From a virus, in IMG/VR virus record IMGVR_UViG_3300025158_000005: DNA of 64,000 bases. One strand, given 5' to 3'. The notes beneath the pieces are model-generated. The model was given only the letters and a program-made list of their open reading frames with translations, was not told the origin of the DNA and searched no databases. Numbering within the stretch: the stretch's first letter is position 1; the number at the start of each line of letters is the position of its first letter. The translations under genes and the position numbers were made by a program. Of the stretch, positions 4,029 to 56,385 are shown piece by piece.

Positions 4029-4768
4029 TGTTCAAAAATAATCCTTACTACCATAAATCGATACGTAATGCGGTCATTGCATTCGGTAATCTTTTCTCCG
4101 GAATTCATCTAGTCGATTATGAATCAACAGGAAAGGCTATCAGAAACGTTGAAGTTCCCATTTCATTTGCCAGAAAACAACAGTGGTTACAACGTATTCA
4201 AGGTGACCCCGAGTTTCTGAAAAAGTTCGAAGCGGAGTTGCCTCGAATTTCATTTGATATCATATCAATGGAATATCAAGCAGGAAAGAAAATCGGCAAT
4301 CACTTCGATCATATGCTTATAAACTGTGGAGTACCAAAAACAGTGGGTTCACCTGCACCTTGGAGACTTACATTTGAACTTTCGGCATACTGCAAGACTG
4401 TTGATGATTCGCTACAGATTAAGGAACAAATTCTTCCTTACTTCACTCCATCATTGGCGTTAAATTACTTGCTTCTTCCCGAATACAACTTCTCGATGGA
4501 CGTACCTGTTACTCTGTTGAGTATAACTGATGAAGATAATTATGATGATCTTCATTCAAATAGACGGATAATCGATACATATACGTTTGCGATGGACGTT
4601 CAACTGTTCGGACCGACTTCTAATAATGTTGGAGTCATTAAGGAAACGATTGCAAATATCAACACGATGGACGGTACTCCAATGGAAACAAATAATTCTG
4701 TTGTCGTGCCAAGAACAGCAAATAAGACGGATGCTTATACGATTGCTGCAAACTGGACGATACTATGA
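4028..4768 (+). CDS. gp15: Tail sheath stabilizer / tail terminator gp15
   Basis: YYHKSIRNAVIAFGNLF, LPRISF and QILPYFTP motifs. Confidence 0.92.
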   Translation: MFKNNPYYHKSIRNAVIAFGNLFSGIHLVDYESTGKAIRNVEVPISFARKQQWLQRIQGDPEFLKKFEAELPRISFDIISMEYQAGKKIGNHFDHMLINCGVPKTVGSPAPWRLTFELSAYCKTVDDSLQIKEQILPYFTPSLALNYLLLPEYNFSMDVPVTLLSITDEDNYDDLHSNRRIIDTYTFAMDVQLFGPTSNNVGVIKETIANINTMDGTPMETNNSVVVPRTANKTDAYTIAANWTIL

Positions 4769-5193
4769 AAGAAATTGAAAAGATGCTCAACATAGTACCA
4801 TCAGATATTCATTCTGCTGAGCTAAGTTTGTCTGCGATTATGCCTCAAGAAGTTGAAACTCCAGAGGATCCAGATTTTGCATACGCTCGTCTGAATTTAT
4901 ATTCGATCATGGAACAAGGTAAGATGGCGTTAGAAGGTGCCTTGCGCGTGGCCGAACAGTCGGAGAATCCACGTGCATATGAAGTGGTTGGTGGGCTTAT
5001 TGGTCAAATGGCTGCATTAAATAAAACACTAATGCAACTAGGTAAGGATAAAGAAGACGTAAAGACCGCTCGGAAGGGCAATAGTTCGCCGACTGCGGCC
5101 ACGCAAGCCTCAGTAATGAATAATACAGCAATATTTGTCGGTTCAGGCAACGATATTAATAAACTAATCGCAGAGAGATTGGGTAATAAATGA
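4765..5193 (+). CDS. gp16: Terminase small subunit gp16
   Basis: DFAYAR.NL, SENPRAYEV and NNTAIFVGS motifs; position before gp17. Confidence 0.9.
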   Translation: MKEIEKMLNIVPSDIHSAELSLSAIMPQEVETPEDPDFAYARLNLYSIMEQGKMALEGALRVAEQSENPRAYEVVGGLIGQMAALNKTLMQLGKDKEDVKTARKGNSSPTAATQASVMNNTAIFVGSGNDINKLIAERLGNK

Positions 5194-5468
5194 AAACATT
5201 CAAAGAGTTCGTAAAAGAAGCAAAATGGGTAACCGACCCGGAAGAACCCGCTACAGGGCTAAAACGCGGAGATTCTGTTTATCATAGGGAAAATGGGCAT
5301 ACGCTTAGAACTGCAACGTATCTTCAAACTGATACTAAGAATGGTGATCATATTATCAAACACAAGGTACAGGATAAAGATGAACTCGCCGGCGGAATCC
5401 GGCGAGTAAAAGCAAAGGACGTATTCCGGGACCCGGGTGACGCTTGGAAGAATCCGTATAAAGTATGA
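5190..5468 (+). CDS. Putative internal head protein with capsid-targeting N-terminus
   Basis: Starts MKTFKEFVKE, matching the T4 IP targeting sequence (MKTF/YxEF..E); small and basic. Confidence 0.6.
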   Translation: MKTFKEFVKEAKWVTDPEEPATGLKRGDSVYHRENGHTLRTATYLQTDTKNGDHIIKHKVQDKDELAGGIRRVKAKDVFRDPGDAWKNPYKV

Positions 5469-5533: not shown

Positions 5534-7156
5534 ATGATAGAATTATCCCAAATTGAGGAATATTTACAGCATCTTTCCTTTAAATCGAACCCCAATCTTA
5601 GACCTGTAAATTCACCCATCGAATATACTGAGGAAATGCTTGATGAATATATCAAGTGTTCCCAGGACCCGATATATTTTATATGTAAGTACGTCAAGGT
5701 AGTTCACCCTGATCGCGGTGTAGTCCTTATGGAATTGTACGACTATCAGAAAGAGATGGTCGATTCATATTATCATAACAGATTTTCTATCGTTCGAACA
5801 GCCCGGCAGCAGGGCAAAACCCAAACTGCCGCTGCATTTTTCGTTTGGTATATCATATTCAACGATAATAAGTCTGTTGCTGTTCTCGCCAATAAGCAAG
5901 CAACCTCCGATGAAATTCTATCACGTATCAGAATGTCATATGAGAATCTTCCTAAGTGGTTGCAGATGGGCGTCAAGGTTTTTAATAGAAGATCGATTGA
6001 ACTAGAGAATGGTTCAAAGTTATTCGGTGCTGCCACATCAAGTTCTGGTATTCGTGGTAAAACAATCAATCTTCTGTATATCGATGAAATGGCGTTCATT
6101 CAGAATACAGCCTTTGAGGAATTCTTCACGTCGGTATATCCAACAATTACGGCTTCACGGGATGCCCGCGTAATTCTTACCAGTACGCCTAATGGTTTCA
6201 ATCATTTTTACAAGTTCTGGTCTGATGCAGAAAAAGGAATAAACGGTTTCAATCCAGTTCGTGTTCATTGGTATCAAACTCCTGGAAGAGATCAGAAATG
6301 GTTCGAGTCTCAGATGGCGATTCTGGGTGAACAAAAGGGAGCACAGGAAATTCTTGCTGAGTTCATGGGTTCGAGTAGACAATTACTGTCAGCAACAACC
6401 ATGGCAACGCTTACATATGACATTCCAATAAAGACATATGAAGGCGAATTCGCTGGGCTAAAGGTCTACAAAACTCCAGAGAAAGATCGCGTATATACCA
6501 TGACTGTTGACGTATCAAGAGGTCGTCATTTGGATGCCTCTGCATTCTCAATATTCGACGTAACCGAATATCCGCATCGAGTTGCCGCAACATATAAGAA
6601 CAATGAAGTTCCCCCTTTGATGTACGCGGGCATTTGTTTCAATATGGCAAAAAATTATAATGAAGCATTTATTCTAGTAGAAATCAATGATGTTGGTGCC
6701 CAGGTGGCTGATGAACTCTTTCACACCTACGAATATGAGAATCTTTACTGGACCAAATCCGGTGACGTACTAGGTAAGAAAGGTGCCGACCCGTATCCTG
6801 GCATTAGAACGACCAAAAAGACTAAACGGATTGGTTGTGCAAACTTGAAGGATATCGTAGAGAGAAATCAACTTATCGTAAATGATGCCGATACGATAAC
6901 CGAACTAAGTACATTCGTTCAAGCAGACTCTGGTACATGGGAAGCCGATGATGGATTCCATGATGATATGGTTGCAACTTTATGGTTATTCGCTTGGTTG
7001 GTAACTCAACCGTGGTTCGTTGATCTTACTGATAGAAGCATGAGAAATAAGATGTATCTAGCCAAGGAAAAGGAGATGGAAGACTCCTTGACTCCGTTCG
7101 GTTTTATACAAGACGGATTATCTGATGAACTAGAAGAAGTAAATCTCAACTGGTAA
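5534..7156 (+). CDS. gp17: Terminase large subunit gp17
   Basis: Walker A RQQGKT, Walker B LYIDE, STPNG, nuclease VDVSRG and HDDMV. Confidence 0.97.
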   Translation: MIELSQIEEYLQHLSFKSNPNLRPVNSPIEYTEEMLDEYIKCSQDPIYFICKYVKVVHPDRGVVLMELYDYQKEMVDSYYHNRFSIVRTARQQGKTQTAAAFFVWYIIFNDNKSVAVLANKQATSDEILSRIRMSYENLPKWLQMGVKVFNRRSIELENGSKLFGAATSSSGIRGKTINLLYIDEMAFIQNTAFEEFFTSVYPTITASRDARVILTSTPNGFNHFYKFWSDAEKGINGFNPVRVHWYQTPGRDQKWFESQMAILGEQKGAQEILAEFMGSSRQLLSATTMATLTYDIPIKTYEGEFAGLKVYKTPEKDRVYTMTVDVSRGRHLDASAFSIFDVTEYPHRVAATYKNNEVPPLMYAGICFNMAKNYNEAFILVEINDVGAQVADELFHTYEYENLYWTKSGDVLGKKGADPYPGIRTTKKTKRIGCANLKDIVERNQLIVNDADTITELSTFVQADSGTWEADDGFHDDMVATLWLFAWLVTQPWFVDLTDRSMRNKMYLAKEKEMEDSLTPFGFIQDGLSDELEEVNLNW

Positions 7157-7400
7157 GCGAACGAAGCGAGTGCGGCGAATTCGCTAATGGTTTAAATTAC
7201 CATACGCAACGGCAGCGACCGGAGGGATAGTGCATAAGTAGTAATCAATGGGAGATAATGCACAATCTAGCGAACTTCGTTCGCACTCGCTTCGCTCGTA
7301 GATTCATTTGGATTTAGATTAGAACTTATAAGATGCATCCATGAATTTACCATCTAGCACCCATTCATTAATGCTAACACTGCGCGGTTATTTTTGTCAA
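7157..7400 (-). repeat. Copy 1 of a duplicated structured non-coding element with an antisense sigma70 promoter
   Basis: 43-bp block 7193-7235 is identical to 55047-55089; 32-bp block 7268-7299 matches 55104-55135 with 1 mismatch; minus-strand TTGACA (7395-7400)-N18-TAGCAT. Confidence 0.85.
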
Positions 7401-7475
7401 ATTTATTTGTTACGGTTCATTGAAATCAATGACATATAAATATTTGACAATTGCGTTTTCTTGTGATTTTGAAGT

Positions 7476-7510
7476 CTAAATAAGTGCAAAACAAGAGAAG
7501 TGCTAAATAT
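7476..7510 (+). promoter_or_regulatory. Two late (gp55-type) promoter motifs TAAATA upstream of gp18
   Basis: ctaaataa / ctaaatat; the same (A/C)TAAATA motif precedes gp19, gp22, the 45.7-50.4 kb genes and others; resembles the T4 late TATAAATA. Confidence 0.6.
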
Positions 7511-7557
7511 ATTTGTGAAAATATTCACCAAATGTTATAATTTTAAGGAGTTTTAGA

Positions 7558-9555
7558 ATGCCTATCCAAACAAGCCCAAGTGTGGCCATTGTCGAAACCG
7601 ACTTTTCTCAAATAGTGCCTCTTGCGGCTACTGGCGCTGGCGCAATCGTCGGTCAGTTCCCAACTGGGCCACTTCTACAACCTGTTCTATGTACATCAAC
7701 AACTGATCTACAGAATTACTTCGGAACACCAAATAACGACAACTACAAAGAATGGTTTACTGCATGGAACTTCCTGCAATATTCCGGTTCTCTTTGGGTT
7801 ACTCGTATCCAAGCCACTGGTGTAATGAATGCCGCTGCTAAGAAGTCCGGTTCAACATCTGGAATTCTTCTTGGTAATCAAACTGCATATGATATGTCTA
7901 CTGAGCTAAGTCTAACTACCGCTGGCGAGTGGATTTGTAAGCAACCAGGTGCTCTAGGAAATGCACTCGAAGTTATCATGATTGATAACGGAACATGGGC
8001 AACCTTTCAAGCAGATTATAACAAGTCTCTGTCATACAACGTTGCTACGGCTGCAATCGCTACCGACGTTGCTACGATTACTGGTTCAGGTTTCCCATTC
8101 GCAACCGGGGATAGCGTGACTCTTGCTGGATTTATCGGCGACGACGCAGTATTCAACGGCACCCATACTCTTGCATCTGCATCTTCAGGGTCGTTGACGT
8201 TTGCGATCACTTCGGTTGATTATTCGGCAGCAAGTATCTCTACCGCTTGCACTGTAACAGGTAATGCTCTGTACATGAGTGAAAGCCGTCACCTATATTC
8301 ATATTTGAAGTTTGGTAAACCAACAACAACAACGTTCATGTCAGCTACAAATGCCGCTGTTATGGACGAACTAACGGTTTTCGTTATCGATAAAACTGGT
8401 GCAATTACCGGTGTTGCTGGTCGCATTCTTGAGTTGTGGGAAGGACTATCTAAGGTAGCAGATGCAACGAACTATCTTGGTCAAGGTATCTACTACGCAA
8501 CGTTCATGAACGTAAATTCAAACTGGTGTTACTGGGCTTCTGAACCTTCTACCGGAACTGGTCTTGCATGGGGTAACGTATCTTCAACGTATTCTACTGG
8601 CGTTGCTCAACAAATGACTACCCTGTATGTCGTTTCCATGTCTGCCGGTGATGACGGTTCGTTGACTGGACCTGAAAAGATCGCTGCACTACAAAACGCA
8701 TATTCAGTATACTCCGATAAAGAACAGATTCCTCTCGCATACATCATGACTGTTGATTATCCAGCCAACGTTGTTCAATATGCAGTTGATATCGCCGAAA
8801 CTCGCCGCGATTGTATCGTGTTTGTCTCCGCTAACAACAGCGGAGTACCATTCACCGCTGCTTCGACCGTTGTTAATGATCTTCAAACCTTCCGCGGTGT
8901 GACGCTGAATGTAAACAGTTCATACGCATTCCTAGACTCCGGTTACAAGTATCAATTCGACGGATTCAACCAAGTTTATCGTTGGATTCCTCTGAACGGT
9001 GACACCGCTGGTCTATGCGCAAACCTAGATGCAAACTATCAATCTTGGTTCTCTCCAGCCGGTTTCACCCGCGGTCAAATCAAGAATGCTGTCAAGATTT
9101 CGACTCCATTGAATCAAGCTGCACGTGATATTCTGTATCCTCAGCAAGTCAATGCAGTTGTTTCTTTCCCTACCAAGGGTACAGTCCTGTTTGGTGACCG
9201 CACAATGCAATCCAAGCAATCTGCTTTCCAAAGCTACAACATTCGTAGACTGTTTATCATTCTTAAGAAGTCCATTCAAACTGCCGCTCAATATCAGTTG
9301 TTTGAGTTGAATACACCTAACACCCGTAATAACTTTGTGGGTATGGTGAAGCCATTCTTGGCAAGCGTAAAAGCAAATCAAGGTTTGGCAGACTTCTTGG
9401 TTGTGTGTGACAGTACAAACAACACGGACGCAACAATCGCAGCCGGGCAGTTCATTGCTGATATTTACATCAAGCCACTATATTCAATCCAATACGTTGT
9501 ATTGAATTTCGTTGCTGTGAAGTCATCGGTGCAGTTCAACACACTACACGCCTAA
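7558..9555 (+). CDS. gp18: Tail sheath protein gp18
   Basis: SPSV...E.D, WFTAWNFLQY, WFSPAGFTRG, LFGDRT and NIRRLF motifs. Confidence 0.97.
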   Translation: MPIQTSPSVAIVETDFSQIVPLAATGAGAIVGQFPTGPLLQPVLCTSTTDLQNYFGTPNNDNYKEWFTAWNFLQYSGSLWVTRIQATGVMNAAAKKSGSTSGILLGNQTAYDMSTELSLTTAGEWICKQPGALGNALEVIMIDNGTWATFQADYNKSLSYNVATAAIATDVATITGSGFPFATGDSVTLAGFIGDDAVFNGTHTLASASSGSLTFAITSVDYSAASISTACTVTGNALYMSESRHLYSYLKFGKPTTTTFMSATNAAVMDELTVFVIDKTGAITGVAGRILELWEGLSKVADATNYLGQGIYYATFMNVNSNWCYWASEPSTGTGLAWGNVSSTYSTGVAQQMTTLYVVSMSAGDDGSLTGPEKIAALQNAYSVYSDKEQIPLAYIMTVDYPANVVQYAVDIAETRRDCIVFVSANNSGVPFTAASTVVNDLQTFRGVTLNVNSSYAFLDSGYKYQFDGFNQVYRWIPLNGDTAGLCANLDANYQSWFSPAGFTRGQIKNAVKISTPLNQAARDILYPQQVNAVVSFPTKGTVLFGDRTMQSKQSAFQSYNIRRLFIILKKSIQTAAQYQLFELNTPNTRNNFVGMVKPFLASVKANQGLADFLVVCDSTNNTDATIAAGQFIADIYIKPLYSIQYVVLNFVAVKSSVQFNTLHA

Positions 9556-9617: not shown

Positions 9618-10208
9618 ATGGCAAATTTGACAAGTTTTAGAGAAACAATTGGTGGTGGTGTTCGCCCTAACCAGTTTGAAGTTCAACTTACCGATTTTGG
9701 TGGACCAATGTTTATCGACAACGGGGTGTTCTCATTCCTGTGTCATGCATCAAGTCTACCGGGCAGCACAATCGGACAAGCAACCGCCTTTCACCGCGGT
9801 CGTGCAGTACCTTTAGCAGGTGAGCGTATATTCGAACCTTGGACAGTCACGATTTATGCTGATCAGGGAATGGAAATTCGTACCGCCTTTGAACAGTGGT
9901 CCTCATACATTAACGACTACGCAAATAACTCTGGCGAAACAACGCCTTCGAATTATTCCGCAAGTGGTTACGTTATGCTTCTTGATCGTGCATCGAATCC
10001 TATCAAGACGTATCAAGTTATTGGTATCTGGCCAATAAATATTTCCGATATGCAACTCGGCTGGCAACAAAATGACGTTCTAGCAGAGTTTACCGTAACT
10101 TTCGCTGTAACAAGCATTGATCCAATGGCATCAACTCCTGGTCTGATTACAGCAGGTGACGATCCTACTATGGGTGGTTCCGCGCGAAACAATCCTGCAA
10201 TCGCTTAA
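9618..10208 (+). CDS. gp19: Tail tube protein gp19
   Basis: GGVRPNQFEV, LPGSTIG, GR..LAGER.FEPWTVT and WPINIS motifs. Confidence 0.95.
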   Translation: MANLTSFRETIGGGVRPNQFEVQLTDFGGPMFIDNGVFSFLCHASSLPGSTIGQATAFHRGRAVPLAGERIFEPWTVTIYADQGMEIRTAFEQWSSYINDYANNSGETTPSNYSASGYVMLLDRASNPIKTYQVIGIWPINISDMQLGWQQNDVLAEFTVTFAVTSIDPMASTPGLITAGDDPTMGGSARNNPAIA

Positions 10209-18143: not shown

Positions 18144-18170
18144 GGGGGAGCCTATAGGCTCCCCTTTTAT
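18144..18170 (+). terminator. Rho-independent terminator after gp23
   Basis: ggggagcc-tata-ggctcccc followed by a T tract. Confidence 0.85.
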
Positions 18171-18199
18171 TTGACAATATTAAACATATGTGTTAATAT
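18171..18199 (+). promoter_or_regulatory. sigma70-type promoter for the Hef-like gene
   Basis: TTGACA-N17-TAATAT. Confidence 0.6.
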
Positions 18200-33460: not shown

Positions 33461-33480
33461 ACTCTGTAAGACGTCGAAAA

Positions 33481-33506
33481 TAAAAAGGAACTTCGGTTCC
33501 TTTTTA
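33481..33506. terminator. Bidirectional terminator
   Basis: aaaaaggaac-ttcg-gttccttttt. Confidence 0.9.
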
Positions 33507-33510
33507 TTTG

Positions 33511-33539
33511 TTGACAATAAATACACACTTCTGTAGAAT
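33511..33539 (+). promoter_or_regulatory. Early-type sigma70 promoter
   Basis: TTGACA-N17(..TG)-TAGAAT. Confidence 0.75.
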
Positions 33540-35813: not shown

Positions 35814-35975
35814 ATGTTGTATACCCACAAGGTAGTTTTCGACAAGGAAGTATGTGGCTTTATCGCCAAAAGCGAGTCTTGCCGCTTTCCGAACTTGCCT
35901 TCGGCAAGATCATATGCCAAGGCGATTGCTAAGAAGTTTGGTTTTCATAATGTGCGAATCGAGGTTTTGAAATGA
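35814..35975 (+). CDS. Small hypothetical protein (53 aa)
   Basis: RBS aggag directly after the promoter. Confidence 0.5.
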   Translation: MLYTHKVVFDKEVCGFIAKSESCRFPNLPSARSYAKAIAKKFGFHNVRIEVLK

Positions 35976-36153
35976 CATGCACTGATCTTGAACTATCCTT
36001 CTCCAACGGAGACTTGGATGTCGAATACGCCGAATTCATCAGGCGATCCTGCTGACTGAGTTATTTGTGACGGAGATTCTCTGCTTTGTGCCATGGAAGA
36101 CGGATATCTTGCAGAAGAATTTTTGAACTTCATGAAGCAAAAACAATGTTGAT
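35972..36153 (+). pseudogene. Disrupted small phage gene
   Basis: MTCTDLELSF..YAEFI, then a frameshift and an in-frame TGA before VICDGDSLLCAMEDGYL.EEF. Confidence 0.5.
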
Positions 36154-54628: not shown

Positions 54629-55049
54629 TTCAATCATAAAATTCCTCCAATTCGTTACAACACTAGATTACTCGGGTATATCGGTGTTGTTGATGCTCGT
54701 GATTCTGTTAGGATTTCTTATCAGAGCACATTTTTCCAAAACCTCAGCATTCTTCTTCGACAAGTTGTTCCTAAACGATTTCGATAGACCGTCTATATCT
54801 CAGATTGCAATCGTTATAAGTCTTATCTTGTCCGCTTGGGCATTTGTCTTTCTAACGTTGAAAGATTTAATGACAACAGGGTATTTCATGGGCTTTCTAA
54901 GCGTATGGGTAGTACAAAGCGGATACAGTAAATGGATGGACTCATTGAAGATTCCAAAGATGGATGACGTGAAGAACTTATTCGCTAACGGAACACCGTC
55001 GCTTGACGACGTGAAGAAACTTTTCAATATCGGACAGAACTCGTCCTAA
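54621..55049 (+). CDS. Multi-TM membrane protein, holin candidate
   Basis: Three hydrophobic segments and a charged C-tail with duplicated (M/L)DDVK.LF; in the lysis cluster. Confidence 0.5.
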   Translation: MTDSIIKFLQFVTTLDYSGISVLLMLVILLGFLIRAHFSKTSAFFFDKLFLNDFDRPSISQIAIVISLILSAWAFVFLTLKDLMTTGYFMGFLSVWVVQSGYSKWMDSLKIPKMDDVKNLFANGTPSLDDVKKLFNIGQNSS

Positions 55050-55267
55050 ATTACCATACGCAACGGCAGCGACCGGAGGGATAGTGCATTTAGATGCATC
55101 ATTTAGCGAACTTCGTTCGCCCTCGCTTCGCTCGTCGCATCTTTTATTGGAACTAACTTAGAACTTTTGGTGCATCAATTAGCGACCACTGATGCATGAT
55201 GATAAACATATTTAAGGTAGCACGAGCGCGTATTCAATAATCTAACACGTGCTGGAATTTATGTCAA
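55047..55267 (-). repeat. Copy 2 of the duplicated structured non-coding element
   Basis: Shares the 43-bp and 32-bp blocks with 7193-7299; minus-strand TTGACA (55262-67)-N17-TAGATT. Confidence 0.85.
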
Positions 55268-55318
55268 ATATTTTTGTAAGTTGTTGATAACTAATCGATA
55301 ATTTAAGCAAAAATAAAC

Positions 55319-55347
55319 TTGAAAATAAGTCTTTCCTACAGTAAAAT
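55319..55347 (+). promoter_or_regulatory. sigma70-type promoter for primase
   Basis: TTGAAA-N17-TAAAAT. Confidence 0.5.
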
Positions 55348-55371: not shown

Positions 55372-56385
55372 ATGTTTTATCTTGATGTTCAATACGCCCG
55401 CCGAATTGCTTACAAACTAAATCGATTCAAAGTCAAAAAAGACAATGGAAACGTCTTCGAAGCGGCATTCCGCTGTCCGATTTGCGGGGACTCAGAAAAG
55501 TCAGAAGCAAAGACTCGTGGTGGTCTGTACACAAAAGACAGCCATCTTTATATGCATTGTTTCAATTGTAATGCGAACATGCACTTCGGACAGTTTTTGA
55601 AGCACATCGACTTTCCTCTCTGGGAAGAATACAAACTCGAAAAATTCAAGCATAACGTAAAATATAACCCACCGAAGGAACCAGTAAAACATGAGCCAGT
55701 TTTTATAAACCCTGCATGGTCAGACGGGTTGGAGCGTATCGATTTACTAAATGACGATCATCGTGCTAAGATGTATCTGACTAAAAGAATGATACCAAAA
55801 GACAAACTAAACTTGTTTTATTATGCTCCAAAATTCTTTGAGTGGTCAAGATCGAACACCGATAAGTTCAAGGATGCTCATACAGACGATCATGAACGGA
55901 TCGTTATGCCTTGGTTCGATAAAGATGGTCGTTTCTTCGCATATCAAGCACGCGCGATGGGAGACGAACAACCGAAGTATTATTCCATCGTTCTTGACAA
56001 GTCTGTTCCTAGAATTTATGGGCTTGATCGTATCGACTGGAACAAGAAAATTTATTGTGTCGAAGGTCCGATGGACTCATTGTTTCTAGATAACGCGGTG
56101 GCTGTTGGCACGAGCGCTCTATACATGTTCCAAACGGACGATCAGGAAGTGATCTATGTTCCAGACAACGAAAACCGAAACAAGGAAATTCTCAAGGTCT
56201 ACTCGAAGTTGATCAAACTCGGTAAAAACGTTGTCATTCCGCCAGACAATTGCGAGTTCAAGGATATCAACGATGCTATCATAGAAAAATTTGACGTGAA
56301 ATCAATGATAGACGATAATATCTATAGTGGTCTTCGTGCTCAAGTAAAACTTAACGAGTGGAAGAGGGTTGATTATGAGAGTTAA
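55372..56385 (+). CDS. gp61: DNA primase gp61
   Basis: FRCPICGDS..K.RG..CFNC Zn domain, QAR, VEGPMDSLF, DNE.RN and KDIN motifs. Confidence 0.96.
   Translation: MFYLDVQYARRIAYKLNRFKVKKDNGNVFEAAFRCPICGDSEKSEAKTRGGLYTKDSHLYMHCFNCNANMHFGQFLKHIDFPLWEEYKLEKFKHNVKYNPPKEPVKHEPVFINPAWSDGLERIDLLNDDHRAKMYLTKRMIPKDKLNLFYYAPKFFEWSRSNTDKFKDAHTDDHERIVMPWFDKDGRFFAYQARAMGDEQPKYYSIVLDKSVPRIYGLDRIDWNKKIYCVEGPMDSLFLDNAVAVGTSALYMFQTDDQEVIYVPDNENRNKEILKVYSKLIKLGKNVVIPPDNCEFKDINDAIIEKFDVKSMIDDNIYSGLRAQVKLNEWKRVDYES

Follow-up and report, generated by a model that had tools for sequence, protein, structure and literature searches.

T4-family phages are the textbook case of timed gene expression and multiple replication origins, and in T4 the opposed orientation of genes yields early RNA that is complementary to late messages. 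To our knowledge, antisense control has hardly been examined in this family, and we know of no sequence motif that is common to its origins. T4-type phages contain promoter-early stem-loop (PeSL) cassettes (Arbiol et al. 2010, PMC2839356; Comeau et al. 2014, PMC4122927). The virulent Pseudomonas phage PAK_P3 produces early antisense RNAs over its late structural genes (PMC4933390), which have been proposed to curb leaky late expression (Chevallereau et al. 2016, PMC4933390). Among the replication origins of T4, oriF and oriG are composed of a promoter and an unwinding element and use an R-loop as primer, and oriE combines an early promoter with iterons (Kreuzer and Brister 2010, PMC3016281); the strand displaced at T4 origins is the proposed loading site of the primosome (PMC3016281). 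In its GAA-capped form, the d(GCGAAGC) motif is a DNA mini-hairpin of extraordinary stability that occurs at priming sites (PMC13037366). Its described cases are the origins of single-stranded DNA phages and plasmids or the N4 virion-polymerase promoters, which are read by a hairpin-specific polymerase (PMC13037366).

The locus described here contains what is, by its sequence, a positionally conserved module, in which a predicted backward early promoter is combined with GAA/TTC-capped hairpins where the packaging operon ends. Several uncultured relatives have it as well, and the phage under study carries a duplicate between its lysis genes and its primase gene. This module bears on how a phage with its genes on one strand silences nuclease and lysis genes early in infection, or on where replication starts; if it acts as an insulator only, it extends the repertoire of promoter/stem-loop cassettes at module junctions.

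The duplicated unit and its surroundings

The window (the whole stretch of 64,000 nucleotides that was analysed) is part of the genome of an uncultured T4-like myovirus from groundwater, and the same DNA is abundant in ~20 groundwater/aquifer metagenome runs. Its terminase is only ~44% identical to those of the nearest isolates and 60–75% identical (amino acids) to those of the nearest metagenomic relatives. Nearly all genes of the window are located on the + strand. Its two largest gene-free gaps (401 and 322 nt) each contain one copy of the cassette, as had been noticed in the original prediction. Copy 1 is located directly after the packaging genes, a run of gp13–17 homologues that is closed by the large terminase gene (5534–7156, + strand, Pfam), and is followed by the tail sheath gene (7558–9555, + strand, Pfam). 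Copy 2 is located after the lysis cluster, with spanin/lysis genes upstream and the primase gene (55372–56385, PHROGs) downstream. The sheath gene is preceded by a T4-type late promoter core, TATAAATA (7434–7441, + strand), which stands back to back with the antisense promoter described below; the same motif is found upstream of the sheath gene in the relatives L121 and L122. The primase gene is preceded by a sense promoter (TTGAAA-N17-TAAAAT, 55319–55347, + strand) that diverges from the antisense promoter of copy 2. A tRNA/tmRNA search at the element gave no match.

Segment-wise alignment of the two gaps yielded a homologous non-coding unit of ~220 nt (copy 1, 7193–7412; copy 2, 55047–55279). 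It starts with a 43-bp block (7193–7235), which includes GGAGGG (minus strand, CCCTCC) and is identical in copy 2 at 43 of 43 positions (55047–55089), where its first three bases are the stop codon (TAA) of a membrane-protein gene located upstream. A 32-bp block follows (7268–7299 in copy 1, 55104–55135 in copy 2), with 31 of 32 positions identical. Between the blocks, a TGCAT/ATGCA stem is kept while its loop changes, being GTGCAT/ATGCAC with a 22-nt loop in copy 1 (7230–7263) and GTGCAT/ATGCAT with a 4-nt loop in copy 2. The diverged middle part (7300–7354) retains the motifs TTAGAACTT (7319–7327) and TGCATC (7335–7340), and ttagaactt, tgcatc and tagcac follow one another in this order in each copy. 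Along the unit, identities were 43/43, 7/10 and 31/32, followed by 71% up to TTAGAACTT (segment E), an unalignable middle (segment F) and 80% in the promoter segment (segment G). None of 1000 shuffles reached the scores of segments E and G, and segment F was not significant; significant homology thus spans the 43-bp block and everything up to the promoter, and is lost past the promoter segment. The two blocks, the stem with its changing loop and the ordered motifs had been part of the original prediction and were recovered, as was an extra inverted version of the 32-bp block that is present in copy 1 only (7157–7184, ~86% identical). In folds with z-scores of -3.8 and -5.4, this arm pairs with 7270–7300 and closes a long hairpin around the 43-bp block. 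A reading of the element as a MITE, which the original prediction had named as a possible refutation, was rejected because the inverted arms (7157–7184/7270–7300) do not bound the repeated unit: they occur in copy 1 only, the unit extends to 7412, and there are only two copies.

Together, the two blocks are identical between the copies at 74 of 75 positions, compared with 71–80% in the rest of the homologous unit. The chance of one change or fewer in 75 nt is ~1e-8 if a uniform divergence of ~25%, as in the flanks, is assumed, which argues that selection or patchy gene conversion has kept the blocks alike; a single conversion tract is disfavoured because the loop between them has been replaced. 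Judged by unitig depth alone, there are two copies per genome and no third, since the unitig of the 43-mer had a depth of 378, compared with 164 and 175 for its left flanks, in one DNA run. Logan contigs of the window's phage break at the 43-bp block. The assemblies of L073, L074 and L120 end 6–90 nt past the terminase stop codon, as a repeat at this place would cause.

The element gave no blastn match in 50,697 phage GenBank records or in 71 related loci, and no match in the nearest record, G001. When IMG/VR was scanned for exact occurrences of a 32-mer and a 26-mer, the single match was a 9.5-kb contig of the same phage, and exact scans for both blocks in 185,000 prokaryote genomes returned none. 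Within the range of these searches, the 43-bp block is unique to the window's phage. The string CTAGYRCCCATTCAT..CTAACA is common to copy 1 (7346–7380) and the relative L072 (10037–10062, beginning at the terminase stop codon), which suggests that, in the window's phage, ~190 nt with both blocks were inserted behind the stop codon and ahead of an older promoter segment. The gaps of the window (7231–7263, 7333–7340, 55085–55098 and 55171–55196) and of L007, L122, L121 and L002 repeatedly contain the hexamer ATGCAY/RTGCAT, in the contexts ATGCACCAT (L007 and L122), ATGCACAAT (copy 1) and ATGCATCAT (copy 2).

Backward promoters and capped hairpins in the window and its relatives

Each copy contains a predicted sigma-70-type promoter on the minus strand, with a TG in front of the -10 box. 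In copy 1, it reads TTGACA (7400–7395)-N18-TAGCAT (7376–7371) and is preceded by an A/T-rich upstream tract; in copy 2, it reads TTGACA (55267–55262)-N17-TAGATT (55244–55239). Transcription is predicted to start at ~7364 in copy 1 and at ~55232 in copy 2; the distance to the stop codon of the preceding gene is 208 nt (terminase) and 183 nt, respectively. The -35 box, the sequence GTGTTAG at the -10 box and the upstream A/T tract are kept between the copies, the spacer is changed and contains an indel, and both -10 boxes match the consensus at only 4 of 6 positions. The strict pattern TTGACA-N16-18-TAnnnT occurs nine times in the 64 kb; only two of these sites are on the minus strand, both of them in the element, and the ten other window gaps larger than 128 nt contain no strict minus-strand promoter.

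In relatives, all five fully sequenced post-terminase gaps larger than 150 nt contain a backward TTGACA-N17/18-TAnnnT promoter with an A/T-rich upstream tract (L072, TTGACA-N18-TAAAAT; L007, TTGACA-N17-TATAAT; L008, TTGACA-N17-TATTAT; L121, TTGACA-N17-TATTAT; L122, TTGACA-N17-TATAAT). A sixth relative, L002, carries one between the spanin genes and the primase gene (TTGACA-N17-TATCCT), as the counterpart of copy 2. No backward promoter was found in relatives with a post-terminase gap shorter than 90 nt, or in the sequenced part of the gap in L124 and L075, whose contigs end inside it. The strict minus-strand background is ~1 site per 16 kb in 207 kb of the clade. All eight promoter sites, seven of them independent (the two window copies being homologous), aim into late genes, namely terminase (Pfam) or spanin/lysis genes (PHROGs), and the distance from the predicted start to the upstream stop codon is 165–208 nt in five loci and 27–51 nt in three. 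The two minus-strand promoters of the original prediction were located, and a chance match is excluded by the occurrence of the same kind of promoter after terminase in five independent relatives and before primase in a sixth.

The L002 locus (4599–5365, on the same contig as L067; 69% terminase identity) has the order terminase, Rz-like spanin, lipoprotein-type spanin and primase. Because terminase there runs directly into spanins and primase, the counterpart of the 48-kb sheath-to-lysis segment of the window must be located elsewhere in the L002 genome. In three metatranscriptome runs, contigs without strand information covered terminase, sheath and the start of the 43-bp block with the copy 2 flank, and did not cover 7223–7612.

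The 32-bp block contains two hairpins, GCGAAC-TTC-GTTCGC (7270–7284 in copy 1, 55106–55120 in copy 2) and the mini-hairpin GC-TTC-GC (7289–7295 and 55125–55131). As originally predicted, the minus strand of both copies accordingly reads GCGAAC-GAA-GTTCGC and GCGAAGC, that is, G-C closed stems with a GAA loop, and equivalents of this d(GCGAAGC)-type hairpin are present in relatives. Perfect C(TTC)G/C(GAA)G hairpins with a stem of at least 4 bp occur ten times in 218 kb, seven times within these gaps. Their stems vary by paired changes around a constant loop (GCGAAC/GTTCGC in the window, AAGCAAC/GTTGCTT and TACGCC/GGCGTA in L121, TTCGC/GCGAA in L122), with shorter forms in L007 and L008, and CGCTTCGC (GCGAAGCG on the minus strand) is common to both window copies, L007 and L122. 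The C-GAA-G hairpins of the original prediction are both conserved and strongly enriched in these gaps. Across loci, they are located 38–113 nt downstream of the predicted antisense start (69–112 nt in the window). At the six sites with both backward promoter and hairpins (the two window copies, L007, L008, L121 and L122), C-GAA-G belongs to the strand that would be displaced during antisense transcription. In L124 and L075, these hairpins lie on the opposite strand, and L072 has the backward promoter and no hairpin. No terminator-like U-run follows the hairpins on either strand. The layout of promoter plus hairpins is conserved in position and architecture in relatives and rare elsewhere, and because related phages share it after terminase, we regard the cassette as a real control element.

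Several further stem-loops were recorded. A canonical two-way terminator in the window, GGAAC-TTCG-GTTCC (33478–33509), indicates that TTCG-type loops are the phage's normal usage on the sense strand. It forms part of a PeSL-type sense pair (33478–33539) in which the terminator AAATAAAAAGGAAC-TTCG-GTTCCTTTTTATTT is directly followed by TTGACA-N17-TAGAAT, and a second such pair of stem-loop and early promoter (18145–18199) consists of GGGGAGCC-TATA-GGCTCCCC and TTGACA-N17-TAATAT. A small SD-preceded frame of ~53 codons (35815–35976) follows the RNA ligase/HNH cassette. A third hairpin, CTTGCC-TTC-GGCAAG (35894–35908), was not assigned to the cassette hairpin family because it is located within this frame. 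A reading of GAAC-N3-GTTC as a LexA/Cheo box was rejected because the spacing is wrong, the LexA/Cheo box having N4. In L075, the region after terminase (9950–10150) comprises two tandem C-GAA-G hairpins on the + strand and a G+C-rich tail with four G-runs (GGGGAGGGGGG...GGGGGAGGGG); the contig, which ends there, could be chimeric.

Candidate functions of the cassette

Our first, still tentative choice is an early antisense transcription unit whose hairpins insulate the late operons. The cassette would then be a non-coding boundary element of two parts, placed directly after the final gene of a late operon. One part would be formed by one or two very stable small hairpins, capped by C-TTC-G on the sense strand, and the other by a strong promoter for host RNA polymerase, firing backwards through the hairpins into the 3' end of the late operon. 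Because host-type promoters are active from the first minute of infection, the product would be an early ('anti-late') antisense RNA. Both this RNA and its transcribing polymerases would counteract premature read-through expression of terminase and lysis genes, which would be harmful, and the hairpins may serve as a two-way barrier, or as a stabiliser of RNA ends, between converging transcripts. Speculatively, the 43-bp block might let the RNA of one copy pair perfectly with that of the other. Since its genes are almost all on one strand, the window's phage would otherwise be without early complementary RNA of the T4 kind. The antisense unit is ranked first because the sites aim at terminase and lysis genes, the genome is without opposed genes and PAK_P3 provides a precedent; promoter activity, early timing, a transcript and its effect are inferred. 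Against it stand the absence of a U-run, the 4/6 match of the -10 boxes, the reversed hairpins of L124 and L075 and the hairpin-free L072. It also gives no reason for the preservation of the 75 nt in the two copies or for the constancy of the GAA/TTC loop.

The main rival, in our estimate somewhat doubtful, is a transcription-primed replication origin of the T4 kind, at which the backward early promoter would supply the R-loop RNA that primes leading-strand synthesis. The displaced strand, with GCGAAGC and GAAC-GAA-GTTC, would fold into SSB-resistant mini-hairpins that may keep the R-loop open or mark the site of helicase-primase loading. The anatomy of the cassette, a promoter with a downstream element of ~100–200 nt, is like that of T4 oriF/oriG, and the backward promoters stand back to back with sense promoters, much as active T4 origins are found at points of diverging transcription (PMC3016281). 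An origin is also consistent with the presence of C-GAA-G on the would-be displaced strand at all six sites with promoter and hairpins, with the sharing of GCGAAGCG itself by the window, L007 and L122, with the occurrence of such mini-hairpins at the single-stranded DNA priming sites G4 oric and RSF1010 ssiA (PMC13037366), and with the two copies per genome, one of which adjoins the primase gene. However, the element has no clear easily melted tract (33–38% G+C over the 60–95 nt downstream of the start, compared with ~41% in the window), neither copy coincides with a turn of the GC skew, and L124 and L075 carry the hairpins in the opposite orientation. Repeats of TGTWACA, spaced by 10–11 bp, are located beside the promoter in L121 (2358–2374) and L122 (2083–2120), between the backward promoter and the late promoter of the sheath gene, and would suit an origin; the window copies, by contrast, have only one degenerate unit, and no TGTWACA cluster was found anywhere in the window, so that the combination of iterons and early promoter seen in T4 oriE is missing there. 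Moreover, TGTAACA-AGA-TGTTACA is also located 9 nt upstream of an ordinary sense promoter (TTGACA-N16-TATAAT) in an unrelated phage (L132/L170) and therefore resembles an operator. A scan of IMG/VR for the iteron pattern gave mostly unrelated hits, the repeat also serving ordinary sense promoters, and arrays of ATGTTACA were seen in the further viral contigs L147, L152, L135 and L141. A broader proposal, that this clade of uncultured T4-like phages marks its early replication starts by a backward host-type promoter and displaced GCGAAGC hairpins that hold the R-loop and recruit the primosome, appears unlikely; if true, it would provide the first sequence signature common to T4-family origins and a duplex-genome counterpart of the single-stranded DNA initiation signals of G4 and RSF1010.

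The remaining readings are each improbable. The sense strand might encode a tiny basic protein of 19/20 residues, with the hairpins as features of its mRNA and the backward promoter as a separate element. Candidate micro-ORFs are located on the + strand at 7258–7317 (MHNLANFVRTRFARRFIWI, spanning both hairpins) and 55094–55156 (MHHLANFVRPRFARRIFYWN). Both copies have the ATG, an aligned stop codon and an in-frame 3-nt indel, and 11 base changes (including CAC/CAT, CTA/TTA and AGA/CGC) lead to only five residue changes (p = 0.019 by simulation, an estimated ~0.04 when the indel and the choice among six frames are taken into account); in copy 1, the insert in the 22-nt loop provides GGGAG 3 nt ahead of the ATG, and L121 and L122 also have small open frames over their hairpins. 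Yet these statistics are marginal, a second frame is open as well, the frames of the relatives share no sequence and read CTTCG in another frame, and the start codon is inside a stem. Coding does not need the perfect stem complementarity that is kept by paired changes, and a peptide leaves the 43-bp block unexplained. We give equally little credence to a relic of recombination, in which a PeSL-like cassette with a spare inverted early promoter was copied between two module junctions and marks shuffling points only. In its favour, the 48 kb between the copies have another location in L002, the backward promoters and the phage's own early promoters have similar spacers (AATTC..GCAC), and module shuffling in T4-type phages takes place at cassettes of promoter and stem-loop (PMC2839356, PMC4122927); a relic would be expected to drift evenly, whereas 74 of 75 nt are kept, compared with 71–80% in the flanks (p ~1e-8), and the backward promoter keeps its position across relatives that have no other alignable intergenic sequence. 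Nor is a trans-acting structured small RNA probable, from either strand, with the two blocks as its defining three-way junction. The 43- and 32-bp blocks are predicted to form such a junction, with a common fold of 27 pairs on the + strand and 24 on the minus strand, and their sequence has been preserved in both copies. The predicted fold of copy 2 did not stand out from those of shuffled sequences (z -0.7 and -1.6), there is no compensatory pair between the two copies, and the 64 kb gave no Rfam match at the gathering threshold. A relaxed Rfam search returned nothing at copy 1 and chance-level scores of 12.9 and 12.5 bits (threshold 40) near copy 2. A covariance model of the 43/32-bp domain recovered only its two input copies from 50 related loci and showed no covariation, five long antisense units from relatives gave no alignable structure in a joint fold, and the window contained no complementary target of 13 nt or more, only chance-level 12-mers. 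The original prediction is supported for the antisense promoter and the conserved hairpins and not supported for a structured ncRNA class with covariation, and its origin idea is compatible with the anatomy; it had not considered a terminator/insulator role on the sense strand, a PeSL-like recombination cassette or the 19/20-codon ORF over the hairpins.

Relation to described systems

With PeSLs, the cassette shares an intergenic location that begins at the upstream stop codon, a sigma-70 promoter that is close to consensus and preceded by an A/T-rich tract, a stable stem-loop, and its repetition in the genome at points where the gene order of related phages differs. A PeSL has its promoter facing the downstream gene, with the stem-loop within or next to the promoter, measures ~50–100 bp and is present in dozens of copies, mostly in hyperplastic regions; the cassette has a backward promoter 40–115 nt from its hairpins, a length of 220 nt and two copies at the ends of late operons. 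Its promoter is opposite to both neighbouring genes instead of driving the downstream one, and the hairpins of the window are 69–112 nt from the predicted start, not at the promoter boxes. Only two copies exist, yet the segment that they flank is arranged differently in L002. The orientation of the promoter and the position of the stem-loop thus set the cassette apart from the PeSL as defined.

The likeness to PAK_P3 lies in early antisense transcripts against the late genes of a virulent phage, which are predicted in the present case. The RNAs of PAK_P3 are known from RNA-seq and mostly have intragenic starts, whereas the promoters predicted here are located in intergenic cassettes with conserved hairpins. 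The cassette has a promoter on the opposite strand that points into a gene, like the gene of a cis-antisense RNA, as judged from sequence and from its conserved position in relatives. With T4 origins, it shares a promoter with a short downstream element, the presence of several copies per genome and sites of divergent transcription. The promoters of oriF and oriG are, however, MotA-dependent middle promoters combined with an A+T-rich unwinding element, whereas those of the cassette are of the early type and lack a marked A+T-rich tract; oriE has iterons and the window copies do not, so that an origin role is a candidate only.

We know of no hairpin-specific polymerase in T4-like phages. The d(GCGAAGC) family is matched by hairpins capped by C-GAA-G, by the literal GCGAAGC and by a position beside a predicted start of nucleic-acid synthesis (Hirao review 2026, PMC13037366), although the hairpins of the cassette are located in intergenic duplex DNA and might just as well function in sense-strand RNA. 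On the features compared here, the element would function as a boundary cassette of the promoter/stem-loop type and perhaps also as an origin of the T4 kind.
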